Source of the DNA: a virus
IMG/VR virus record: IMGVR_UViG_3300037511_000274
Reading direction: 5' to 3' (one strand)
DNA: 60,591 nt
This document shows positions 5,487 through 36,395 of the stretch, one piece after another. The first letter of the stretch is position 1; every line of letters begins with the position of its first letter. The notes under the pieces are model-generated. The model saw only the letters and a program-made list of their open reading frames with translations, searched no databases and was not told the DNA's origin. The translations under genes and the position numbers were made by a program.

Positions 5487-5631
5487 GGGGGGACCTGGCG
5501 GGACTGGGGCTACCCTCACCCCCTCGCGCCCGCGTGCGTGCATGTGTGCGCCCGCCGCGCGCCCAGGGCAAGAGCATGTTTCTCGCGTATGTATAGGTGG
5601 TGAGGGTAGCCCCAGTTCCCCCGCTCCCCCC
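5487..5631. repeat. long inverted-repeat element, copy A
   Basis: Perfect 18-bp arms ACTGGGGCTACCCTCACC (5503-5520) and its reverse complement (5599-5616), extended imperfectly to about 33 bp. The 78-nt centre and the arm core GGCTACCCTCACC are homologous to copy B at 36257-36395. Confidence 0.85.
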
Positions 5632-6115: not shown

Positions 6116-6269
6116 TGGGCTCCTCCTTGCGCTCGGGATGTATCCGCTTGACCGGGATGCGCTCACCGGTGCCCGCCACGATCCGCACGCACCGGTGGCC
6201 CACGGCCGCTTCGCACTTAGGGCACGGCCGCCGGAGCGCCTTGTCCTCCACCGAGCCGCCCAGCCGCAT
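6108..6269 (-). CDS. small zinc-ribbon-like protein, 53 aa
   Basis: MRLGGSVEDKALRRPCPKCEAAVGHRC... with a CxxC motif. The N-terminal part of the track ORF overlaps the HNH gene and was rejected. Confidence 0.55.
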   Translation of the reverse strand: MRLGGSVEDKALRRPCPKCEAAVGHRCVRIVAGTGERIPVKRIHPERKEEPSA

Positions 6270-6295
6270 CACCAGGCGGGCTCCTCGTTGCGCCC

Positions 6296-6655
6296 TCACT
6301 TCTTGCGCCGGACGGTCGCGCCGGTGCTGCTGTTGCACGTGCCGCACGCGGGCCGGATGTTGTCCCGCCGGTACGTGCCGCCGTGACAGCCGGGCTTGAT
6401 CCGGTCCACCGTGACCGTGTCCACCGTCAGGAGCTGGCCGCACCGGTAGCACCGGCACGCGGGCTCGGCGCCCTCGGTGCCGATCACCACCTCCACCACG
6501 AGCGGGCCGTGGAACAGGTCGATGGCGATCACGTCCACGTTGGCCCGGTACGTCTCGACCAGCCAGGCTCGCCTACGGCGTCGCTCGTCACTTCCTCCCC
6601 GGGCGTTGCCGTTCGTCGTCCCCCGGCGCGCTGGCCGGACCAGTTCGGCGGTCAC
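6296..6655 (-). CDS. HNH endonuclease
   Basis: CRCYRCG...DRIKPGCHGGTYRRDNIRPACGTCN matches the HNH signature. GTGA overlap with the upstream gene. Confidence 0.85.
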   Translation of the reverse strand: MTAELVRPARRGTTNGNARGGSDERRRRRAWLVETYRANVDVIAIDLFHGPLVVEVVIGTEGAEPACRCYRCGQLLTVDTVTVDRIKPGCHGGTYRRDNIRPACGTCNSSTGATVRRKK

Positions 6656-13118: not shown

Positions 13119-14591
13119 CTACCGCTTGACCAGCCCGAGCTTGGTCGTCGGCATGGTGCCCTGGGGAGCGGCAAAGTTCGTCGCCTGGATCCGGTCGGCC
13201 CAGAACGACATAGCCACCGCGTCGCCCCGGTCCGGCGACCGGCCGAGCTTGGCCACCACGTCCTCCTTCTTCTCCACCTGGATCTTGGGTGGCACGCCGG
13301 TGGTCACCTGCCAATGTGGCGTGGTCAGGTCGGAGGTCAGCAGGTCGTCCGGGGGGAGCATCAGCGTCGGCTCGAATGCCGGGTCCAGCAGCTCCCGGAG
13401 GTTCCAGTAGGCCGCGCTCCGGACGTTGGCGAACCCGAGCTTGCGCGAGCGCTCGCGTACCTGGGTCTTGCCCGAGCCCACGTACGCGATGGCCTTCAGG
13501 CCCACCTCGCGCGCCCGGTCGTAGACACCGGCGCCCACGCCGATCACGTCGATGATGGGCCGCTCGTCCAGGCCCTGGAGCATCGCCACCGTGTTCATGG
13601 TGTCGCGCGAGCGCCAGCCGTCCAGCCAGAGCGCCGGTCCATCCCGGTGCGCCAGGACCGACTCGTCCCCGCCCCGGCCCACGTCCACGCCCACCCAGAG
13701 TGGGCCGCCCTGGGCCGGGCGTCCCGCCCGGTCCCACTCATACCAGCGCTCGTTAGCCGCCTCCAGCCACGCCAGCGGGATCACGCTGTCCTCGTCGCTG
13801 GCGTGGAACTCGCCCAGCACGCGGTTGTGGTAGACCGCCGAGTCCCGGCCCCACTGGAGCGCCCGCTGTTCGGCCCAGGCGCGCGAGATCCGGCCGCCCG
13901 CCACGGCCTCCTCCAGCGTCACGCTCTTGGTCCACCAGTCCTCGTACCCGGGCGCCCGCCGGTGGATGTCGTAGAACCGGCCAGCCGGGGCGCCCGGCGT
14001 GCTCATGGCGAACGCGTACGCGTTGTCCGCCGTGTCGGGGCCAGCGTTGGAGAACGCGCCCTCGATCGAGTCCCACGTGGCCGGGGGCACGATCTTGGCC
14101 TCATCCAGCAGGTACAGCAGCTCCTCGGCGTGCGCGCCCTCGATCCGCTCGGGCTGGTTGCTGGCCACCGCCGTGGCCGCGCCGTAACGCAGCTTCAGCC
14201 TCAGGTCCAGCAGCTCGGTCCGCCGGTTGTACGGCGCCCTCCCCAGGCTGGTGAAGTCGATCCGGTCGGCCCACTTGTGGATCTCGGGCCAGAGGTAGAC
14301 CTCCAGGTGGCGCCACGCGCTGGCCGTGGTGATGATCTTCCAGTCCTTGCCCATCATGTCCCGGGTGGTGGCGAACCAGTTCACCAGCAGCGCGCCCGAG
14401 AACGACTTGCCCAGGCCGTGCGGCCCCTTCACGGCCACGCGCCGGTGCACGGGGAGGGCGTCCAGGATCTCGGACTGGTAGCCCGCCAGCCGGACGTTGA
14501 GCACGTCGTGAGCCCAGGCCGTGGGCGAGTCCCGCCAGCGCGCGATCCGCGTCCGCGCGAGCACCTTGCCCGCCAGGTCGATACCGGTCAC
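13119..14591 (-). CDS. terL: terminase large subunit
   Basis: Walker A VKGPHGLGKS. About 490 aa. GTG 14591 chosen because GC3 collapses upstream and a GTGA overlap links it to the 59-aa ORF. Confidence 0.85.
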   Translation of the reverse strand: MTGIDLAGKVLARTRIARWRDSPTAWAHDVLNVRLAGYQSEILDALPVHRRVAVKGPHGLGKSFSGALLVNWFATTRDMMGKDWKIITTASAWRHLEVYLWPEIHKWADRIDFTSLGRAPYNRRTELLDLRLKLRYGAATAVASNQPERIEGAHAEELLYLLDEAKIVPPATWDSIEGAFSNAGPDTADNAYAFAMSTPGAPAGRFYDIHRRAPGYEDWWTKSVTLEEAVAGGRISRAWAEQRALQWGRDSAVYHNRVLGEFHASDEDSVIPLAWLEAANERWYEWDRAGRPAQGGPLWVGVDVGRGGDESVLAHRDGPALWLDGWRSRDTMNTVAMLQGLDERPIIDVIGVGAGVYDRAREVGLKAIAYVGSGKTQVRERSRKLGFANVRSAAYWNLRELLDPAFEPTLMLPPDDLLTSDLTTPHWQVTTGVPPKIQVEKKEDVVAKLGRSPDRGDAVAMSFWADRIQATNFAAPQGTMPTTKLGLVKR

Positions 14592-14767
14592 GTCTCCCCC
14601 AGCCTCATCATCCGGCGGAACTCCGCCAGCCGTTCGTTGACCACCCGGCGCCGCTCGCGCGAATCGGCCGCCTTGGGGCTCAGGCCCGGCCGCCAGTGCT
14701 CGCACCCATCGTCCGCCGGGACCAGCTCGTCACAGGCTCCGCACGGCCGCCACGCCCGGAACATCAT
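14588..14767 (-). CDS. 59-aa zinc-ribbon-like protein, below the ORF-track cutoff
   Basis: ATGA overlap with the upstream gene and GTGA overlap with terL. Contains CGACDELVPADDGCEHW. High GC3. Confidence 0.55.
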   Translation of the reverse strand: MMFRAWRPCGACDELVPADDGCEHWRPGLSPKAADSRERRRVVNERLAEFRRMMRLGET

Positions 14768-16245: not shown

Positions 16246-16913
16246 GATCCCAGCGAGGGGATCGTGTATCCGGCCGCGTCACAGCCACCGGCCAGGCCGC
16301 TGTACGCGTCCGATATCGGGCCGACCAGCGCCAGGACGCCCAGGTTGTTCGAGCCCATGCCCTGGGCCTGCCAGGCCAGGTCCATCAGCTTGGTGCCGTT
16401 GTCCCGGATAGCCGGGTAGCGCGAGTCCGCGAACACCTCGCGCGCCTGGCGGTACTGGTCCAGGGTCATCACGCCCTTGGCCTTGACCGGCGCCTGGCCC
16501 TTGCTGATGGCCTCGCACGCGGCCACGCCCGAGTCCTTGCCGATCAGCGGCACCCCAGCGGGGAGCCAGTTCATCCGCTGGACCACGAACCCCAGCAGGC
16601 CCAGGAACAGAGCCGCCACCAGGACCACGCCCAGCACGGTGCCCACCCGGTTCCACGAGCGCTCGCCCGGCGCCGGATCCCAGGTGTGCATCCCGGCCGC
16701 CCCGTACTGCGGCTCGGGGGCGTGGCGCGGCTGGCCGTGCTGGGCGGTCAGGTCGGCCCAGATCGGGAGCTGGCCGGTCGGCCAGTTGCCGGTAGCCCAG
16801 TGCTCGGCCGCCAGCGGGTCCACCTCGGGGGCCTGGCCCGGCGGCCCGGCGTCGGTGGCCGGGTGGAACGTGGCCTCGGTCTTGTTGCTCATCTCGTCCT
16901 CTTCGCTCGGCAT
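16242..16913 (-). CDS. single-pass membrane protein, 223 aa
   Basis: Pro-rich N-terminus, transmembrane segment VGTVLGVVLVAALFLGLLGFVV, and a Cys-containing extracytoplasmic domain. Confidence 0.8.
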   Translation of the reverse strand: MPSEEDEMSNKTEATFHPATDAGPPGQAPEVDPLAAEHWATGNWPTGQLPIWADLTAQHGQPRHAPEPQYGAAGMHTWDPAPGERSWNRVGTVLGVVLVAALFLGLLGFVVQRMNWLPAGVPLIGKDSGVAACEAISKGQAPVKAKGVMTLDQYRQAREVFADSRYPAIRDNGTKLMDLAWQAQGMGSNNLGVLALVGPISDAYSGLAGGCDAAGYTIPSLGS

Positions 16914-16924
16914 GTTCGGTCTCC

Positions 16925-16959
16925 GTATTACTTGCCAGTTATGACGTTCAAGTGATCAG
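16925..16959 (-). promoter_or_regulatory. degenerate promoter module (…CACTTGAACGTCAT…TAATAC)
   Basis: Core is recognisable but carries insertions. TAATAC lies 11 nt before ATG 16913. Confidence 0.35.
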
Positions 16960-16995
16960 GGTACCGGGGGAGCGCAACCGCTCCCCCGGCGCCCG

Positions 16996-19900
16996 TCACT
17001 TCTCGTAGCACTTACTCCAGTCGGTCCCCGCCGGGCTCCGGTCGGCCAGGATCGGGACGCCCCGCCAGGGCTCACCGTGGAGGCTCAGCGCGTCCACCAC
17101 GACCCGGCTCACGTCCTCCACGAGGTCGGCCGGGATGGACAAGACGATCTCGTCGTGGACCTGGGCGCGCAGCATGGGGAGGACTTCCGCCGGGAGGTTC
17201 AGGCAACCCTCCATCATGATGTCCCGGGCCGCGCCCTGGCCGCCGAGCGCCGGACCCTGGGTGTGAGCGCGCTGGGGGTCGGGCCGCATGAGGCGACCGA
17301 ACCCGTTGTCCAGGAGCTGGCCACTGGCCGCCAGCGCCCGGATCTCGTCCTGCCACTCGACCAGCCGGGGGAAGCGCTCGCGCATCATCCGGTCGAACTG
17401 GACCACCAAGTGGGGCTCGATGTTGTTGCTCATGCTGATCCGCTTCAGGCTCTCCCCGTAGTTCCAGCCGTGGCCGATCGGCTTGGCCACCTCGCGCATC
17501 TTGGGGTCACCGAACAGCGCCAGGGCGAGGTCCGTGTGGGGGTCGTCGGTCTTCAGCATGTCGATGTACGCCTGGTCCTGGCTGAGCCCGGCGACCGCCC
17601 GCATATCGACCTGGGAGAGGTCGAACGAGACCAGGAGCTGGCCGGGGTCGGGGAGCAGGACCGCCCGCTCCACGTGCCGCCCGCCGCGCTTGCCGAACAC
17701 CGTCAGCCCCGGCTCGGTGCTCGACCACCGGCCGGTGGCCTGCTTGAAGCTGATCTTGGGGTGAACCCGGCCGTCCGGCCCCATCGCGTTCTGAGCGGTC
17801 TCATAGATCGAGCGGGCCGACACGATCCGGTAGACCGCCTTCACGATCTCCAGGACCGTCTTGTTGTGGCCGTACTCCCGGCCGTAGTGGAGCATGGCGT
17901 CCGCGCTGATCTGGAGGTCCCCGCTGTTCGGCGTGCGCCACAGCGCCTTGGGCTTGACGCCCGCCGCGAGGAGGGCCGCCTCCAGCGCCTCCTTGCCGAG
18001 CTTGCTGGCCAGCGGCGCGGCGTACTCCTTCCCCTTGGCGTCGGCCGTGGGGATGCCGTACTTGCCCGCCAGCAGCTCCATCGCCTGGGCCTTCCGGCGC
18101 TGGATCTCCTCCACCCGCTGGGCGAGGAGCGGCTGGTCCACCAGGAACCCGTTGTGGCTGATCTGAGCGGCGATGGCGGCCACCCGGTGCTCGCGCCTCA
18201 GGTAGTCCGGCATCGTGCCGCCCAGCGCCTCCAGGAGGGCCGCGTACAGCCCCCGGGAGCCGCCCACGTCGTGCTCCAGGTACTCCCGGAAGCTGGCCGC
18301 GTCAGCGGCGCGTGCCGGGTCCGGGTCGTCCAGGTCCACCGGGATTTCGCCCCAGCCGCCGTACTTCTTGGCCAGCGCCCTGGAGATGTCGGACAGCTTG
18401 CCCATCGCCCCGTACTTGACCGCCAGCGCGCCCAGGTCGTACTTGCGGGTGGCGTCCACGCCCTTGTCCCGGGCCATCGGCGGATCGACGTAGCGGGCCA
18501 TCAGCAGCGTGTCCGCGAGGTTGCCCGCCGCCGCCTGCTCGTGCACCCACGGCATGATGAACGCGCCCGCTCGGACCAGGACGGGGAGGTCAAACGCCAT
18601 GATGTTGTGCCCGGTCACCACCCGGCCGCCGATGATGGCGTGGCGCGCGTGGGCCACCGTGTCCCGCTCGGTGGTCGCCACCGGCCCGTCATCGTGCGCC
18701 CACCCGGCCAGCCGGACGTAGTCCCGGGGCTCGGCCTTGAACTGGTCCCCGATGTCGCCGGTCTCCAGGTCGATCACCGTGACCTCGGCCGTGGGCGCCA
18801 GCGCGTCGGTCTCCCCGCCGATGGTGTCCTCCGGCGCCGGTCCGCGCGCCTCGGCGTGCTCGTTCTCCGGGGCGGGCTCGGGCATCGGGATATCCACAGG
18901 CTCCTCCACAGGCTGGGGATCGGGGCTTGACGTGTGAGTGTCAGGCTCGGTCGGCGCCGGGCTGACCGGCTCGGGGTCTTCCTTCCACGGGGGGAGGTCA
19001 TCGTCGTGGAACACCTGATAGACGCTGACGTGGCCGTGGGCCGAGCCCACCCGCTGGATCCAGTACGGGCCGTAGTGCCGCCCCGAGATCCGGCTGTACG
19101 CCTCGCCCAGGCTCTTGCCGTACGTCCGTTCGGTGGGGTCGTCCAGCTTGGGCGGCGCCGAGTAGAGGTCCGTCCCGCCGGTCAGCGCCTTGGCCTTCAC
19201 GTCGGCCGTGCGGAACGTGGCCTCCCCGAACTGCTCCCGGAGCCATTCCAGGTGGTTGATCCAATACTGGGTGTCAAAGTCCGACTCCGAGCGCCAGACC
19301 TTCAGGTTGGCCAGGAATCCCTCCAGGCCCGCCACCTCCACGATGCCGCCCACCATGCGCTCCCACTGCTCGAACGAGCCGAAGGACACGCCGCGCTTGG
19401 GGGTCGGCGCCCCGGCCGCGAACCAGGCCCGGACCAGCGTCAGGATGGCCACCAGCAGGTCCCGCCGGTGCTTGCGGGTCCAGCTCCCCAGGTCCAGGCC
19501 CGAGGTGCCCGGGTGCCGGAACGAGCTGGCCGCCCGGTCCTGCGGGTTCGCGTACCGGGGCCGGAGCGCGATCCGGTAGACCCGGCGCGTGATGTCGCCC
19601 TTCACCTGGACGTTGTTGCCCAGCGAGATCCACGTGACCTTGTTCGGGAAGCTGGCCATGTTCGAGACGCCCAGGATCCGGTCCTGCCAGACCTCGGCCG
19701 TGAGGGCCTGGGCCAGCGGCGCGCCCTCCAGGGTGTGCGCCTCGTCGTAGACGAAAAACTCCTGGCCGGTGCGGAATGCCGCCGTGACCTGCTTGCGGAT
19801 CTCCTCGGGCTCGCCCACCCAGTTCATCGGAAGGGCCGCGTGGCCGGTGTAGACCGTCAGCAGGACATCGGCCAGCAGGTTCTTGCCCACGCCCATCTGA

Positions 19901-21264
19901 AGGCCGTCGATCACGGCCAGGGGAGCGCGCGGCACGTTACCCCGGATGGCCGGGGTCACCAGCAGCGCCAGCAAGTTGGCCCGGTCGGCCTCCCCGTCCA
20001 GCGGGAAGTCCCCCAGCCACTCCTCCAGCAGCAGGTCCCGGGCCGCCGCGATCTCGGCCGCGCTCGGGTCCTCGGGTACCTCGATCCCGGCGAACACCTC
20101 GTCCGTCATCAGCAGCGTGCACGTGGCCTCGTCGTAGCCGGGCTCGGTACAGATCGTCCCGTCCGGCCGGACGAACGGCGCGTGGGCGATGCGGGCCAGC
20201 GAGGCGAACTTGGCGGCCCGGCTCATCGTGGCGGACATGGTCCCGGCGTCCGGCCAGGTGTAGGAGTACGTCACGCCCTGGGCGCCGTCGTTCTCGTTGA
20301 CCGTGATGGCCGTGGCCTGGACGAGGTCGTGGAACGAGCCCCGGTCCACCGGCGCCATCGTCTCCTCGTCGCTCAGCCAGGAGATCACGCCCCCGTGGTT
20401 GAACAGGCGCCGCGCGTTCCACAGGTCCAGCAGCGCCTTGGTCAGGTCGTTGATCACCTCCAGCCGGTCCCGGTTACAGATGATCGTTGCGCGCCCGTCG
20501 GCGGCCACCGGCGCTCCGCCGGTCTTCTTCCGGGGCTTGGGCTTGGCGTCCGCTGGTTTGGCCTTGGCGCCGTCAATGACCCGCTTCAGGTAGCCCGCCC
20601 GCCGGTCCTCCGGCCGCCCGGCCAGGATGTCGTCCAGGCCGCTCTTGTCGGCTCCCCCGGGGAGGCGACCGAAAGAGACCTTGGTGGCGCCCTCGGCCGC
20701 CAGGGCCGCCGCCAGGCCCATGCCTGCCTCGTAGACCTCCGGGTTGGTGGCTGCGTCCGCGTCCAGGATCACCACCACGTTCTTGCCGTCCGCCACCGCG
20801 AGATCCGGGATCGGGCCGCCGCCGGGGGTCTGCCACATCCGGCATCCGGCGATCGAGTAGACCGAGACGCCGGGCGGCGCGTAGCTGGCGCCCGCCAGGC
20901 CCTGCTTGGTCCCCTCGATGATCACCATCAGCTCGGAGCCCTCGACCTCCCGGAGTGCCCAGAGCACGGGGGTCATGTCCTTGGCGAACACGTACTTGCG
21001 GGGCTTGCCGGTCCGCCGGTCCGCCGTCGGGTCGTCCGGCCGGACCTGATACTCCACACGGCCGTCCGGCGAGGTCCAGGGGAACACGATGGCCGGGTGG
21101 TTGCTCCAGTTCGGCCAGACGCCCTCGGTGGGGTTGTCGTCGTGGGAGAGCAGCGAGCGCACGCCCAGTCGCTCGGCCAGCTCCACGTTGACCGCGTGGG
21201 CCTCCAGGTATGCCCGGTGCTCGGCGGTCAGCGCCTGGCCGGGAGTGGTGTTACCGTCGTTCAC
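16996..21264 (-). CDS. replicase fusion: Toprim/DUF3854-like primase domain, SF3 (P4/D5-type) helicase, and family A DNA polymerase with 3'-5' exonuclease
   Basis: IIEGTKQ and ILDADAA (Toprim-like). GVGKNLL and FFVYDEA (Walker A and B). Pro-rich linker. VIDLETG, HNIMAFDL and YLEHDV (Exo I-III). FDLSQVDMR, KPIGHGWNYG and QVHDEIV (Pol A, B and C). Confidence 0.85.
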   Translation of the reverse strand: MNDGNTTPGQALTAEHRAYLEAHAVNVELAERLGVRSLLSHDDNPTEGVWPNWSNHPAIVFPWTSPDGRVEYQVRPDDPTADRRTGKPRKYVFAKDMTPVLWALREVEGSELMVIIEGTKQGLAGASYAPPGVSVYSIAGCRMWQTPGGGPIPDLAVADGKNVVVILDADAATNPEVYEAGMGLAAALAAEGATKVSFGRLPGGADKSGLDDILAGRPEDRRAGYLKRVIDGAKAKPADAKPKPRKKTGGAPVAADGRATIICNRDRLEVINDLTKALLDLWNARRLFNHGGVISWLSDEETMAPVDRGSFHDLVQATAITVNENDGAQGVTYSYTWPDAGTMSATMSRAAKFASLARIAHAPFVRPDGTICTEPGYDEATCTLLMTDEVFAGIEVPEDPSAAEIAAARDLLLEEWLGDFPLDGEADRANLLALLVTPAIRGNVPRAPLAVIDGLQMGVGKNLLADVLLTVYTGHAALPMNWVGEPEEIRKQVTAAFRTGQEFFVYDEAHTLEGAPLAQALTAEVWQDRILGVSNMASFPNKVTWISLGNNVQVKGDITRRVYRIALRPRYANPQDRAASSFRHPGTSGLDLGSWTRKHRRDLLVAILTLVRAWFAAGAPTPKRGVSFGSFEQWERMVGGIVEVAGLEGFLANLKVWRSESDFDTQYWINHLEWLREQFGEATFRTADVKAKALTGGTDLYSAPPKLDDPTERTYGKSLGEAYSRISGRHYGPYWIQRVGSAHGHVSVYQVFHDDDLPPWKEDPEPVSPAPTEPDTHTSSPDPQPVEEPVDIPMPEPAPENEHAEARGPAPEDTIGGETDALAPTAEVTVIDLETGDIGDQFKAEPRDYVRLAGWAHDDGPVATTERDTVAHARHAIIGGRVVTGHNIMAFDLPVLVRAGAFIMPWVHEQAAAGNLADTLLMARYVDPPMARDKGVDATRKYDLGALAVKYGAMGKLSDISRALAKKYGGWGEIPVDLDDPDPARAADAASFREYLEHDVGGSRGLYAALLEALGGTMPDYLRREHRVAAIAAQISHNGFLVDQPLLAQRVEEIQRRKAQAMELLAGKYGIPTADAKGKEYAAPLASKLGKEALEAALLAAGVKPKALWRTPNSGDLQISADAMLHYGREYGHNKTVLEIVKAVYRIVSARSIYETAQNAMGPDGRVHPKISFKQATGRWSSTEPGLTVFGKRGGRHVERAVLLPDPGQLLVSFDLSQVDMRAVAGLSQDQAYIDMLKTDDPHTDLALALFGDPKMREVAKPIGHGWNYGESLKRISMSNNIEPHLVVQFDRMMRERFPRLVEWQDEIRALAASGQLLDNGFGRLMRPDPQRAHTQGPALGGQGAARDIMMEGCLNLPAEVLPMLRAQVHDEIVLSIPADLVEDVSRVVVDALSLHGEPWRGVPILADRSPAGTDWSKCYEK
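18927..18944. promoter_or_regulatory. orphan dyad site TTGACGTGTGAGTGTCAG in the replicase linker
   Basis: Encodes PDTHTSS with CCT, ACT and TCA codons. Confidence 0.4.
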
Positions 21265-21326
21265 GTTCGGTCACCTTTCTGGTTGATCATCGGGCCGCCC
21301 CTCGCTCGGGGGCGGCCCGCTCCGTT

Positions 21327-22085
21327 TCAGACCGACGTGACACCGGTGATGCGCCGGACCTCGGTCAGCGCCTCCACCATCAGCATGGCCGCGCTGGAGT
21401 CCCGGTAGGTCGTGATCTCGTTCTTCAGCTCCTCGCCCAGCACGGCCCGAGTGATGTCGTCCACCTTGCTCTGAAGCGGGTTCACGATCTCCCGCTGCAT
21501 CGCCGCACGTGCATCCTCCTTTGCACCTGCCTTTGCATCCTCCACCTGGGCCGTGGTGAATCGGCGCTCCTTCTCCGCCAGCGCCCGCCGGAGCTGGCCG
21601 TCCAGCTCCCCGATCCGGGTCTGGGCGTCGGCCAGCGCGGTCTCCAGATCGGCCACCAGCGACCGGCCCTCGAACGCCACGTGAGCGTCCTTGGTGCATC
21701 GCTCGGTGCACACGTGGCCCTTGACGTACCGGGCCAGGCTGGCCTCCAGCTCGGCTACCCGGGCCTGAGCCCGGTCGGCCCGGTCGCGCTCGGTGTGCCG
21801 GTCCTGGTCGTACCCCCGGACCGTCAGGGCCAGGCCCTCAGCCCGCTTGGTCTCGATCTCGCGCGCCTCCTGGGCGGTCGCGAGCTGGCCCGCCAGGTCC
21901 GAGTTGCGCTCCTCCAGCTCCCGGACCCGGGCCTCTGCCCGCTCGCACGCGTCGGCCCAGTAGCCCGCCTGGCGGCCCCGGACCAAGTGCTGGCCCACCG
22001 TCTGGACCTCGTCCGCCGTGCCGCTGATCTGGATCGAGACCTTGTCCCGCCAGAACTCCTCGGCCGTCTTGATCGTGATTTCCAT
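21327..22085 (-). CDS. coiled-coil protein, 252 aa
   Basis: Start trimmed to ATG 22085 because the track start lies inside the -10 hexamer. Heptad-like Glu/Arg/Ala-rich sequence. Confidence 0.8.
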   Translation of the reverse strand: MEITIKTAEEFWRDKVSIQISGTADEVQTVGQHLVRGRQAGYWADACERAEARVRELEERNSDLAGQLATAQEAREIETKRAEGLALTVRGYDQDRHTERDRADRAQARVAELEASLARYVKGHVCTERCTKDAHVAFEGRSLVADLETALADAQTRIGELDGQLRRALAEKERRFTTAQVEDAKAGAKEDARAAMQREIVNPLQSKVDDITRAVLGEELKNEITTYRDSSAAMLMVEALTEVRRITGVTSV

Positions 22086-22153
22086 GCCCCGTCCTCTCGT
22101 GCCCTGTGCCCGAGCGGGGGGAGCAAGCTCCCCCCGCCTCAACTGCAAAGTGA

Positions 22154-22183
22154 ACATTACCGCTATGCCGGGGAGGTCGTCAA
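22154..22183 (-). promoter_or_regulatory. promoter TTGACG-N18-TAATGT
   Basis: Reverse complement reads TTGACGACCTCCCCGGCATAGCGGTAATGT. The leader carries the hairpin GCGGGGGGAGC/GCTCCCCCCGC (22114-22137). Confidence 0.6.
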
Positions 22184-23874
22184 CCCACCATCCGCCGGAC
22201 CGCCCGGCGCCCGGCGATGCGGGTGATCAGGTCGGCCGCCTCGCCCTTGGTCCGCACCCGGGGGATGTGCTTGGAGGGCAGGCCCTCGCGGACCAGCCGC
22301 TGGCGCTGGGCGTCGGTGACCGGCGCGCTCAGCCACCGCGCCGAGCGCTCCACCAGCTTGGTGAACGCCTTGGCCCGGTCCTCCCCGATGCCCATCGCCC
22401 AGTCCGCCGGAAGCTCCTCGTGGAGGATCGTCAGCTTGCCGCCCTGGTAGGCCGCCAGCTTCCAGGTGTCCACGCCCACGGGGACCATCACCACGACCTC
22501 CTGACCGGCGCCGAGGCAGAACCCCGACTCGACCGGGAGCCACCGGAGCCGGGAGGCGCCGAACACGTCCACCTTCTTGGCCCCGCCGGACTTGCAGTTC
22601 TCGTGCCGCGTGCCGCCGCTCAGCGCGATTTCGGCCGGGAGGTACCGGTGGCACTGGACGCACCGGTGTTCGGCGAACTCGCACGGCACGCCGCAGCTCG
22701 GGCACGCCTGGGCCTCGGGCTCCTCCCCCTCCTTGCGCTTGCGGGGGTCGTCGATGTCCAGGCCGAGATCCACCAGGCCGATCAGTTCGTGGCGCTCGCT
22801 GGCGCCCACGATGTCGATCACCATCAGGTCCTTCTTGCCGGGGAACAGGCGCGTCCCCCGGCCGACCATCTGGACGTAGAGCCCGTGGAACTTGGTGGGC
22901 CGACCGATCAGCACGCACGAGATCGAGGGCTCGTCAAACCCCTCGGTCAGGACCGCGCAGTTGCATACCCACTGGGTCTCGCCGGTCTTCAGCCGCCGCA
23001 GGATCGCCCGCCGCTCGTCCGCCGGGGTCGCCCCGTCCAGGTGCTCGGCCGCGATGCCGCGCGCCTTCAGCGCCTCGGTCAGGAGCTGGCTCGTGCGCAC
23101 CGTGGGGAGGAAGGCCACACCCTTGCGGTCCGGCGCGTTCTCCTTGACCGCGTCGGCCATCTGGGCGATGGCGCCGGACTCCTCCAGCGCCGTGCCCAGG
23201 CCGCCGTCCGAGTAGTCCCCGCCGCGCGACCGGCCGACCTTGTCCAGGTCCACCGAGGTCTCGACCACCACGGCCGGGAGGATCGGGACGAGGTATCCGC
23301 CCTCCTCCTTCTTGCGGGGGTCACCGTAGATGGCCTCCCGGATTGACATGAAATCGACAACTTTTTCCCAGACGCCCAGCGTCTTGTTGTCGCGCTCCGG
23401 CGTGGCCGTGAACCCCACGGTCAGCGGGCCGTGGGAGTTGAACGAGCCCAGCTCGGTCAGCGCCCGGGTCCAGCTCGGCGCCGGTGCGTGGTGGGCCTCG
23501 TCCACCCACAGCGTGCCGAACGGGGACCGGCGGCCGGACTCCACGAGCTGGGCCAGCCGCATCTCGCGGGCGATGGTCGGGACCGAGATCACGACCACGT
23601 CAGCGTCCAGCTCGTTCAGCTCGGCCTTGACGGTGCCCACGCTCAGCTCGGGCGCCACCATCTTGATCTTGTTGCGGGTCTGCTCGGCCAGCTCCTCACG
23701 GTGCACGAGCACGCCGGACCGGCCGCGCTCGGCCCGCTCGGCAATGCCCTTGCAGAATGTCACCGTCTTGCCGGTGCCGGTCGGGTGCACGATCAGCGGG
23801 CGCCGGACGCCCTCGCGCTCGGCGGTCGCCACGTTGTCCAGGGCGCGCCGCTGGTAGGGCCTCAGGTCCAACAT
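22180..23874 (-). CDS. SF2 (DEAD/DEAH-type) DNA helicase with C-terminal zinc ribbon
   Basis: HPTGTGKT, WVDEAHH and FTATP motifs. CPSCGVPCEFAEHRCVQCH. Confidence 0.9.
   Translation of the reverse strand: MLDLRPYQRRALDNVATAEREGVRRPLIVHPTGTGKTVTFCKGIAERAERGRSGVLVHREELAEQTRNKIKMVAPELSVGTVKAELNELDADVVVISVPTIAREMRLAQLVESGRRSPFGTLWVDEAHHAPAPSWTRALTELGSFNSHGPLTVGFTATPERDNKTLGVWEKVVDFMSIREAIYGDPRKKEEGGYLVPILPAVVVETSVDLDKVGRSRGGDYSDGGLGTALEESGAIAQMADAVKENAPDRKGVAFLPTVRTSQLLTEALKARGIAAEHLDGATPADERRAILRRLKTGETQWVCNCAVLTEGFDEPSISCVLIGRPTKFHGLYVQMVGRGTRLFPGKKDLMVIDIVGASERHELIGLVDLGLDIDDPRKRKEGEEPEAQACPSCGVPCEFAEHRCVQCHRYLPAEIALSGGTRHENCKSGGAKKVDVFGASRLRWLPVESGFCLGAGQEVVVMVPVGVDTWKLAAYQGGKLTILHEELPADWAMGIGEDRAKAFTKLVERSARWLSAPVTDAQRQRLVREGLPSKHIPRVRTKGEAADLITRIAGRRAVRRMVG
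23343..23360. promoter_or_regulatory. near-dyad TTGACATGAAATCGACAA inside the helicase gene
   Basis: One perfect arm and one 4 of 5 arm. Encodes VVDFMSI with GAA, AAA, GTT, GAT and TCA codons. Confidence 0.35.
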
Positions 23875-24029
23875 CAGCGCCTCCCCGAGGTGTGCACGCG
23901 GACCAGCTCACCGGTTGCCGTGCGGATCACGATGGCCTCGCGCGTCGCGCTGACCACCGTGCCGGACAGGACCTCGTCCGGACTGGCCGGTCGCCAGTCC
24001 CGGATCTCCTCGTTACTCGTTGCCGTCAT
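23874..24029 (-). CDS. 51-aa protein, apparently leaderless
   Basis: ATG 7 nt after the -10 TAACCT. TGATG junction with the helicase. High GC3. Confidence 0.5.
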   Translation of the reverse strand: MTATSNEEIRDWRPASPDEVLSGTVVSATREAIVIRTATGELVRVHTSGRR

Positions 24030-24036
24030 GACTGTG

Positions 24037-24066
24037 AGGTTACTCGGACGCCTGGGAGGTTGTCAA
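24037..24066 (-). promoter_or_regulatory. promoter TTGACA-N18-TAACCT
   Basis: The motif fragment CCTCACAGTCATGACGG follows the -10 and contains the ATG. Confidence 0.55.
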
Positions 24067-24438
24067 ATCCTCGTCGTACGCGGGCTCGCCGGTGGCCGCC
24101 TGGCCCTCGATCGGGGAGGGGTACAGATCGGCCCAGGAGGTGGCCGCCCGGACCCAGCGGACCACGCGGTTGTCCCGGGCCAGCCAGTTCATCACGGCGC
24201 CCCAGCCAGCCGCCTGGGGGACCTTGCCGGTGCCGGTGACGTACCACAGGCCCCCGGCCTTCAGCATCGCGTACGTGAACACCTTGGGCGTGCTGCGGCC
24301 CCGGGTCGTGTCCCGGTCGGTCTGGCCCATACCGGGGTACTCGATCCCGAACAGCAGGACCGTCCCGTTGGGCACCTTGGCGTTGTCCAGGGTGAAGCTC
24401 GGGCGCCCGGCGCCCGGGTGAGTCAGGGTGGTTGCCAC
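24040..24438 (-). CDS. hypothetical protein, 132 aa
   Basis: GTG after AAGGAGAGA. Ordinary composition. Confidence 0.8.
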   Translation of the reverse strand: MATTLTHPGAGRPSFTLDNAKVPNGTVLLFGIEYPGMGQTDRDTTRGRSTPKVFTYAMLKAGGLWYVTGTGKVPQAAGWGAVMNWLARDNRVVRWVRAATSWADLYPSPIEGQAATGEPAYDEDLTTSQASE

Positions 24439-25494: not shown

Positions 25495-25512
25495 TTGACA
25501 CTTACTTGTCAG
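25495..25512. promoter_or_regulatory. dyad site TTGACACTTACTTGTCAG overlapping the exonuclease stop codon
   Basis: Arms TTGACA and TGTCAG. Confidence 0.45.
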
Positions 25513-26683
25513 ACTTCAGGCCCTTGGGCACCTTGATCGACAGTCGCCGGTGGGTGCTCTTGACCGTGTAGCGCTCGGCCACCTCGGGCATCTCCCGGCG
25601 CAACGCCTCCACGTCCAGGCGCGTGGTGTTGACGACCGGGTAGCCCACCACCTTCTTGTCACCGAGGTAGGCGGCGCCCGCGTCGGCGGTCATCAGCCGG
25701 AACCAGTTCTTGACCGCGTCCAGCTCGGTGTTGGCCCTGTCGGCCTCCTCCTTGGCCTCCTCGTACATCCGGAGCCATTCCTCCGCGTCGGCCCCGAGCT
25801 GGACGCTGGGCCGGATCACGTCCGGGTGCTGGTCCTTCAGCAGGCCCTCGGTGATCGGGTGCTTCAGGTCGTGCTCGGGGATCTTGTCCCCTAGCACGCT
25901 CTCCAGCCAGAAACGCTCGGCCGCGTCGGTCATCTCGCGGAACCACTCCCGATCGAAGTGGACTTCCACCGTGAAGAAGTCGCGCGCCTGGTTGGAGACG
26001 TAGCACCCCAGCCAGCCGATGGGGAGGCCAAGAATGCCGAGTTGCCACTGGAGCTGGGCCTGGTAGCTGAGCGGCGCGCGCCCCGTGCCGTGGCCGCTCG
26101 GCCGGATGGTGCCGGACTCCCAGTGCTCGTCATCACCGGCGGTCTTGCACTCGATCACGCCCAGGGCCTTCCAGGCGCGCGGCTTGGTCGCCAGCCGGTC
26201 CGGGGTCACCCGGATGAACGGCCGCTCCCGGTCGGCCCACAGTCCGCCAGCGAAGCGCGAGACCAGGCCGATCTCCTCGGCGGTCTTCTGGGCCACCACG
26301 TCCTCCAGCCGGTGGCCCCACTCGATCGGCGCGCCGGTCAGCTCCTCGTCCGGGAGATCGGAGGTCTTCTTCTTCCAGATGGACCACGTGGTCTCGTGCT
26401 CGTTCACGCCGATCAGCGCGCCCACCTCGGAGCCGCCGATCCCACCGAGGCGGGCCGCCAGCCAGGCGGGCCGACCGGCGCACTCGGGGAGGATGATCTC
26501 CGCCGGGCTGTTGGGCACCTGGGCGAACCGGTGCACCGGGTGCGGACATGCGAGGCGCCCGCCCGAGCGGGCCAGGTGGCGCTTGACCTCCTGGACCGCT
26601 CGGGCCTCCACCGTGGCGCGCGCCCGCTCGCGTTCCGCGATCTCCACGTCCGTGAAGAAAGCGGGCATGGCGTCGTCGGTCAC
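25502..26683 (-). CDS. YqaJ/lambda-Exo-type recombination exonuclease
   Basis: GGIGGSEVGALIG...IEWGHRLE...VIECKT pattern of the YqaJ family. 393 aa. Confidence 0.8.
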   Translation of the reverse strand: MTDDAMPAFFTDVEIAERERARATVEARAVQEVKRHLARSGGRLACPHPVHRFAQVPNSPAEIILPECAGRPAWLAARLGGIGGSEVGALIGVNEHETTWSIWKKKTSDLPDEELTGAPIEWGHRLEDVVAQKTAEEIGLVSRFAGGLWADRERPFIRVTPDRLATKPRAWKALGVIECKTAGDDEHWESGTIRPSGHGTGRAPLSYQAQLQWQLGILGLPIGWLGCYVSNQARDFFTVEVHFDREWFREMTDAAERFWLESVLGDKIPEHDLKHPITEGLLKDQHPDVIRPSVQLGADAEEWLRMYEEAKEEADRANTELDAVKNWFRLMTADAGAAYLGDKKVVGYPVVNTTRLDVEALRREMPEVAERYTVKSTHRRLSIKVPKGLKSDK

Positions 26684-36256: not shown

Positions 36257-36395
36257 CGGGGGACCGGGGAGACCGAGGCTACCCTCACCCCCGGTCCCTC
36301 GCGTGTTACGCGTGTGCACCCGCCCGCCGAACAACAGATCACTTTCAGCAACGTGTATAGGTGGTGAGGGTAGCCTCGGTCTCCCCGGTCCCCCG
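36257..36395. repeat. long inverted-repeat element, copy B
   Basis: Perfect 33-bp arms CGGGGGACCGGGGAGACCGAGGCTACCCTCACC (36257-36289) and its reverse complement (36363-36395) around a 73-nt centre. The right arm ends exactly at the stop codon of 36396-36677. Confidence 0.9.

Follow-up and report, generated by a model that had tools for sequence, protein, structure and literature searches.

A probable Pas55-type single-chain replicase in a phiAsp2-like phage genome, and a conserved palindrome in its linker DNA

Can primase, helicase and proofreading polymerase be brought to a phage replication fork on one polypeptide, and if so, is the intact chain the form that works? The question is raised by a gene at positions 16996-21264 of a 60,591-nt stretch of viral DNA (IMG/VR record IMGVR_UViG_3300037511_000274), the whole of which is referred to here as the window. 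The coordinates given for this open reading frame (ORF) in a preliminary description, made from the sequence alone, are correct; the gene lies on the minus strand and its frame runs from a GTG at 21264 to a TGA at 16998-16996, i.e. 1422 codons with zero internal stops. The motifs quoted there are all present in the order given: IIEGTKQ (residues 115-121), ILDADAA (166-172), GVGKNLL (458-464) and FFVYDEA (503-509), then Exo I-III and Pol A, B and C. Very probably this gene of a phiAsp2-like actinophage codes for a genuine single-chain replicase, in which a module resembling that of P4 gp-alpha is joined through a disordered tether to a proofreading, Klenow-type family A polymerase (PolA) of the actinophage kind.

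The architecture is not new, and the protein belongs to the already known Pas55-type single-chain replicases. Pas55 of the Actinoplanes phage phiAsp2 (NC_005885), where it is annotated only as a 'putative DNA polymerase', has been described as a fusion of a superfamily 3 (SF3) helicase, a DnaG primase and a PolA (Kazlauskas, Krupovic & Venclovas 2016, PMC4889955). It is 63.6% identical to the window protein and co-linear with it over residues 1-1422 (100% cover), the four parts and their order being shared by both; PHROG 17 matches the window protein over residues 10-1421 (E 1.4e-161). The earlier suggestion that three activities on one chain would be unusual thus fails, because the same architecture is in print for Pas55, of which the window protein is an orthologue. 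Within a set of 50,697 phage records the full-length protein was matched by phiAsp2 alone; in large protein collections homologous fusions, the search for which had been proposed, are numerous, the design being a common one among uncultured phages of actinobacteria: at least 120 fused clusters of 1389-1497 residues (62-100% identity, each in one continuous frame, many on 55-63 kb contigs) were found, and fused forms make up about one third of the nearest representatives at the 50% identity level. What the present analysis adds are domain boundaries set structurally, and a stretch of linker DNA with a conserved cis-element that is worth testing.

Sequence profiles recognise the polymerase only, PF00476 scoring 83.6 bits against a cutoff of 34.3, whereas Pfam, NCBIfam and PDB sequence searches with the N-terminal 800 residues gave nothing significant (Toprim_3, PF13362, E 0.063, 14.2 bits, cutoff 27.2). 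The N-terminal parts were therefore identified by folding. One model, of residues 1-800, was built from an alignment of 58 stand-alone homologues (mean predicted local distance difference test score, pLDDT, 91); a second, of residues 250-1422, has pLDDT 88.9 and a predicted template modelling score (pTM) of 0.55, its domains being placed independently. Fold comparisons were made with Foldseek and VIA-align, and between them the predicted structures, the fold matches for primase and helicase and the PF00476 match bear out the domain calls originally made, i.e. Toprim primase, SF3 NTPase, linker and PolA.

On this basis the N-terminal domain is predicted to be a DnaG-type Toprim primase that is without a zinc finger. 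The model of residues 7-246 superimposes on residues 109-362 of Aquifex DnaG (2au3; Z 16.0, root mean square deviation (rmsd) 4.2 A, 208 residues aligned) and on the T7 gp4 primase (6n9u; Z 14.2, rmsd 3.0 A), and the Toprim residues E117, G118, D168, D170, D211 and D212 are invariant in 56 fused homologues, extending to 30% identity, the set to which the conservation figures below for fused forms also refer. Matches to DUF3854 (PF12965) occur over the equivalent residues of homologues, 3 of 10 exceeding the 23-bit cutoff (best E 6.5e-14, 52 bits), and precomputed PF12965 matches are present on some close homologues.

The next region, residues 254-668, matches the D5-type collar and SF3 AAA+ core of SaPI5 Pri-Rep (7ola), vaccinia D5 (8apl, residues 323-700) and monkeypox virus (MPXV) E5 (8xj7) with Z 13-14 and Foldseek probability 1.0. 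A Walker A element (G460-K461-N462, in the region 19879-19905, residues 454-462), Walker B (D507-E508), a sensor Asn550 and R560/R561, which by position would be the arginine finger, can all be assigned; K461, D507 and R561 are invariant and E508, N550 and R560 nearly so, a pattern that holds for 115 sequences, fused and split. For residues ~669-760 the match is to the C-terminal domain of E5, NrS-1 and PriRep1, where this position is that of the DNA-binding domain, and so residues 669-755 may have a DNA-binding role. The N-terminal 755 residues thereby share the plan described for P4 gp-alpha, i.e. DnaG-type primase, D5-type SF3 helicase and C-terminal domain of a DNA-binding type (PMC4889955), to which in the window protein a PolA is attached. 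The collar and AAA+ fold are common to the D5 family, although vaccinia D5, E5 and NrS-1 carry a primase of the archaeo-eukaryotic (AEP) superfamily where the window protein has a Toprim primase, and the window Walker A lacks the Ser/Thr residue.

The C-terminal half is a complete Klenow-type family A polymerase with proofreading domain, both activities being predicted from fold and motifs. Its model matches the large fragments Bst LF, E. coli Klenow and KlenTaq (E ~1e-21, TM 0.72-0.78, ~640 columns), and the residues of Exo I (D832/E834), Exo II (N887/D892), Exo III (Y995/D999), motif A (D1215), motif B (R1257/K1261/Y1269) and motif C (H1370-D-E) are invariant. His occupies the position of Klenow F762. 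Of the PolAs that stand alone, the closest are Pol I proteins of mycobacteriophages and Streptomyces phages (32-34% identity); in a reclassification of PolA the actinophage D29-like cluster (cluster 9) is given with 'no known partners' (PMC10201439).

From what is established for the families concerned, the SF3 part would form a hexameric ring unwinding the fork, the primase domains on the ring would make lagging-strand primers, and the tethered polymerases would be held at very high local concentration at the fork. T7 has these three activities at its fork with an SF4 (DnaB/RecA-type) helicase and two separate proteins, gp4 and gp5, that an acidic tail contact holds together, and it makes use of a zinc-binding domain and of thioredoxin. 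The window protein would bring the same three activities to one fork and shares the primase fold, and its PolA fold matches gp5 (2ajq), but it differs from the T7 system in its SF3 helicase and covalent link, and no zinc domain or loop for binding thioredoxin is seen in it. The covalent tether may thus stand in for the contact that gp4 and gp5 make non-covalently between helicase and polymerase, and it may also confer processivity; no accessory protein for a single-chain replicase was identified in this analysis. If the chain works intact, it would be a very compact replisome core, with primase, helicase, proofreading and polymerase in a 155-kDa product, and a convenient model for studying how contacts between helicase and polymerase can be replaced by a covalent tether; it might also find use as a reagent in primer-free isothermal DNA amplification.

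Other helicase-primase-polymerase chains are built differently. The helicase of apicoplast PREX (Plasmodium/Toxoplasma) is a Twinkle/T7-like SF4 enzyme. By contrast, the window helicase core matches the SF3 D5 type, and matches to T7 gp4/Twinkle beyond the primase have rmsd >20 A. PREX has the same order of activities on one chain, i.e. TOPRIM primase, helicase, exonuclease and PolA, but is eukaryotic, organelle-targeted and described as a polyprotein, with its PolA in the Aquificae-like cluster 8 (PMC10201439). The only other helicase-primase-polymerase chain listed by Kazlauskas et al. is Lactococcus phage 1706 gp55, combining an SF3 helicase with an AEP primase and a PolB (PMC4889955), which differs in both primase superfamily and polymerase family and is not homologous as a whole.

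The linker bears on whether the product remains one chain. The linker claimed at about 75 residues, Pro/Glu-rich, proves to have 74 (756-829), of which 18 are Pro, 12 Glu and 7 Asp; residues 759-821 have pLDDT <50, so the linker is taken to be a disordered tether, and its length is hypervariable among relatives (55-156 residues). Being disordered and exposed, it might be cleaved, as in the PREX polyprotein (PMC10201439), or an internal start might give free PolA too, much as two products come from T7 gene 4, such that the single translated chain would act as separate enzymes, as in the many relatives that use separate proteins. Although the preliminary description noticed no internal ribosome-binding site, the window linker does hold a Shine-Dalgarno (SD)-like GGAGG-N5-GTG in frame at Val790. 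That part of the earlier statement falls, though the element is not conserved: a strong SD and start within 25 codons of Exo I occur in just 4 of 32 relatives, and the density of such pairs in linkers, ~2x that elsewhere, is as expected of a Glu-rich (GAG) stretch; a conserved internal start giving free PolA is accordingly rejected as a family feature. No protease was connected with the gene in this analysis, and the palindrome in the linker (see below) lacks a -10, which argues against an internal promoter of the type used by this phage. Cleavage or an internal start is rated improbable, though ahead of the other alternatives considered here.

A further element of the linker could be a processing or docking site, i.e. 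the motif P-x-P-[EY]-N-E-H-[AG]-[ED]-x-R-G...D-T-x-G (18805-18876 in the window, residues 797-820), which recurs in 65 of 120 close fused homologues although the linker is otherwise hypervariable. It is present in 0 of 35 more distant fused forms, which speaks against a processing role in the family at large, and in none of the more distant split forms. Docking of this motif on helicase or polymerase received no support, the region being predicted disordered (pLDDT 32-41).

Several points weigh against the reading of the gene as a complete single-chain replicase. The zinc-binding domain, which serves template recognition in DnaG and T7 gp4, was not found ahead of the primase: residues 1-130 have no Cys, and the structural alignments begin at residue 109 of DnaG and residue 72 of T7 gp4, past the zinc domains of both. 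In place of the canonical Walker A GxxxxGK[S/T], the invariant G460-K461 is followed by Asn in 49 of 56 fused forms and by Gly in 32 of 59 split forms, Ser/Thr never being the majority in either, so that the NTPase may have an atypical chemistry. Two genes upstream lies a separate helicase gene (PHROG 16), and the SF3 module may in consequence not be the only or main helicase. Finally, a literature search found no experimental work on any Pas55-type family member, and the view that the chain is biochemically attractive stands for that reason.

The second and third of these points can be taken further, in that the SF3-like module may be no working helicase at all, but a scaffold for primase and polymerase that binds the origin or oligomerises, with unwinding left to the neighbouring helicase, a counterpart of Pas53 in phiAsp2. 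The Walker A sequence G-x-G-K-[N/G] is family-wide, and no Pfam or NCBIfam helicase model, nor any Pfam D5/P4 model, matches this part. The near-invariance of K461, D507/E508, N550 and R560/R561 across fused and split sequences is, however, what selection on an active NTPase would leave, the collar and AAA+ fold match active D5-type helicases, and the SF3 domain was assigned as the replicative helicase by Kazlauskas et al. (PMC4889955). A scaffold role is thus judged unlikely, slightly more so than separation of the enzymes. As an aside, the primase-helicase family with Walker A GK[N/G], comprising 18,623 representatives, has a helicase part that Pfam and NCBIfam models leave uncovered.

An artefact of assembly or sequencing, in which a frameshift error joined two adjacent genes, might be suspected from the tiny junction difference between fused forms and split ones, the latter having overlapping stop and start codons, but is scarcely credible. 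The identical protein is present on 5 JGI contigs as well as in Logan assemblies made independently, which excludes an assembly artefact, and the same frame is continuous in the complete genome record of phiAsp2, in at least 120 independent clusters, in 32 non-redundant loci and in isolate genomes of Corynebacterium and Knoellia.

The single-chain replicase is one of two states in which its family occurs. Among the best 150 of the 18,623 representatives of the N-terminal module (50% level), 35 have at least 1300 residues, nearly all with the PolA motif C sequence HDE near the C terminus. As prophage genes, fused forms are present in the Corynebacterium and Knoellia isolates and in a Mycobacteriales metagenome-assembled genome; many other Actinomycetota have split pairs. 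Adjacent 'DNA primase' and 'DNA polymerase I' genes, whose modules are homologous (30-33% identity), in the same order and on the same strand, are found in Streptomyces Woodruffvirus phages (TP1604, Mischief19) and in many prophages; in these pairs the genes are ~100-120 nt apart, the gap having a hairpin or promoter-like signals, whereas in other relatives they overlap by a few bases. In a tree of the N-terminal module (93 rows) 30 fused and 59 split entries are interleaved, with at least 17 changes of state on well-supported branches, so that, to judge from the tree, gain or loss of the fusion has happened many times over. Truncated genes could account for some of the 'split' entries, yet many have a Cys4 tail, unlike the fused forms. 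Fusion would arise via loss of the stop/start junction between adjacent, often overlapping genes, and switching between the states should be easy because the stop and start codons overlap or abut in split relatives (e.g. loci L057 and L062). That the family is large and toggles between fused and split provides natural matched pairs for comparison.

The tail in question is a zinc-ribbon-like Cys4 sequence, CPxC...ACPxCHPxTF, in the C-terminal 40 residues of split primase-helicases (stand-alone homologues P0128, P0131, P0133, P0134, P0137-P0141, P0145, P0158, P0162 and P0163); a few fused linkers have Cys-rich inserts instead. Tail and inserts may be related to the missing N-terminal zinc domain.

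One exchange of modules at the linker was seen. In the set of 120 close homologues, P0039 agrees with P0040 as far as about residue 725 (97-100% identity) and, starting near residue 779, with P0034 (again 97-100%), and is by this comparison a natural chimera with a clean crossover in the linker. A more general proposal, that the linker is a recombination hot spot, is not borne out, as discordance within modules is as large as across the linker and only one clean linker crossover was seen.

The DNA encoding the linker has a feature of its own. The dyad claimed at 18927 is present, as an 18-bp palindrome inside the linker, and belongs to a window-wide family: TGACACT-N5-GTCA with at most 1 mismatch has 29 copies in the window against 0.57 expected, and the form TTGAC-N8-GTCAA 27-29 against ~0.6. 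About 11 copies supply a uniform promoter, TTGACACTTCACAGTCA-N6-TAAnGT, with its -35 and spacer, while about 10 lie deep within long genes, 2-4 kb apart and without a -10, resembling a dispersed operator-type site. A linker copy is present in 28 of 32 non-redundant phiAsp2-like fused genes, and 30 of the 32 palindromes in these ORFs lie in the linker, which is 6.8% of their length (binomial P 4e-33, uncorrected for relatedness). Pas55 too has a linker palindrome within a syntenic neighbourhood, with linker sequence and palindrome position differing from those of the window. More generally, the flanking linker sequence is unalignable, the position of the palindrome within it varies between relatives, and the residues encoded at the palindrome differ in 4 of 6 codons. 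Its unconstrained bases follow the genome-wide consensus against a G+C content of 90% at third codon positions, with A in motif position 6 and, in 26 of 30 copies, T in position 8; a codon-usage test at the palindrome is otherwise largely circular, because the search pattern fixes 4 of 6 codons, and only these unconstrained positions add evidence. The more distant fused genes (<50% identity) have no linker palindrome.

An internal promoter in the linker was considered and rejected: the -35-like TTGACA is present, but 0 of 23 linker copies have a TAAnGT -10 at the right distance, which the true window promoters have. A generic sigma-70 scan of 16500-24200 found no promoter. Lacking a -10, and lacking a conserved SD and start after it, the palindrome is neither internal promoter nor start signal, and is best read as a site selected at the DNA level, most simply for a putative dimeric DNA-binding protein, where the encoded protein tolerates it. 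It is tentatively proposed, with somewhat less than even confidence, that the linker DNA has a double role, encoding the tether and holding a selected 18-bp palindrome (yTGACAC-N4-GTGTCAA), the same word as the -35/operator core of the promoter family; the linker would be the sole place in a 4.3-kb essential gene for a genome-wide protein-binding site, would mark an old gene boundary and would serve as the joint where phages swap their primase-helicase and polymerase modules with one another. If true, this would help explain repeated fusion and fission. In Streptomyces phage TP1604 (locus L003) the gap between the split primase and PolA genes (6205-6310) has a promoter-like TTGACA-N17-CATGAT where fused genes have the palindrome.

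Table 1. Features of the fused gene and of its surroundings in the window
Feature	Coordinates	Strand	Basis
Whole gene: 1422-residue fused primase/SF3 helicase/PolA, Pas55 orthologue	16996..21264	-	ORF reading, PHROG 17, Pas55 match
Shine-Dalgarno-like GAAAGGTGA, 6 nt ahead of GTG start	21271..21279	-	direct reading
DnaG/T7-gp4-type primase RNA-polymerase (Toprim) domain, residues 7-246	20527..21246	-	fold match, invariant acidic residues
D5-type collar and SF3 AAA+ helicase core, residues 254-668	19261..20505	-	fold match, motif conservation
C-terminal helix/beta-hairpin domain of primase-helicase module, residues 669-755	19000..19260	-	model, alignments reaching residues 740-760
Disordered Pro/Glu/Asp-rich linker, residues 756-829	18778..18999	-	composition, pLDDT
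18-bp palindrome inside linker, sense strand CTGACACTCACACGTCAA	18927..18944	-	direct reading; member of window-wide family
Candidate internal SD and in-frame GTG, GGAGG-N5-GTG, Val790	18895..18907	-	direct reading; not conserved in relatives
3'-5' proofreading exonuclease domain, residues 830-1015; Exo I, II, III invariant	18220..18777	-	motifs, fold; boundary, from Klenow alignment, approximate
Family A polymerase domain, residues 1016-1422; motifs A, B, C invariant	16999..18219	-	PF00476, fold
G+C-rich hairpin right after stop codon; terminator-like, without U tract	16963..16989	-	direct reading
Helicase gene, PHROG 16 'DNA helicase', two genes upstream of fused gene	22180-23874	-	PHROG match
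RecE-like exonuclease gene, PHROG 434	25502-26683	-	PHROG match
Large terminase gene, PHROG 2	13119-14705	-	PHROG match
Palindromes with -10 (include)	9485, 11717, 28847, 29836, 30327, 30391, 31343, 31687, 57932, 59668, 60133		
Intragenic palindromes without -10 (include)	18928 (linker copy), 33912, 38167, 40227, 42528, 46598, 48690, 51648		

With respect to genomic setting, the window has the gene order of phiAsp2, i.e. RecE-like exonuclease, helicase (PHROG 16), small gene, fused gene and then terminase, its exonuclease, helicase and terminase genes (Table 1) corresponding in order to pas49, pas53 and pas60; its G+C content is ~70% along its whole length, and it has the look of a phiAsp2-like phage genome that is nearly complete. 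All matches fall within the Actinomycetota except one, a continuous frame of 1477 residues with 36% identity to the fused protein (locus L150), which is present in the Synechococcus sp. MIT S9507 chromosome at 1483308-1488405 and could be a prophage, a transfer or contamination.

The linker DNA also contains a direct repeat, CCTGTGGA-N4-CCTGTGGA, at 18893-18912 of the window, encoding P-V-[DE]-x-P-V-D. The idea that it is an iteron, found likewise in the candidate origin arrays (5487-5631 and 36257-36395), was rejected, there being 5 copies in the window against 2.9 expected and 0 in the arrays. The repeat recurs in many linkers (L001, L004, L010, L013, L015, L035 and others), its position relative to the palindrome varying, and other linkers carry in its place two copies of AGGTGGCAGAC (QVADSQVAD), such that the linkers look like mosaics of short modules.

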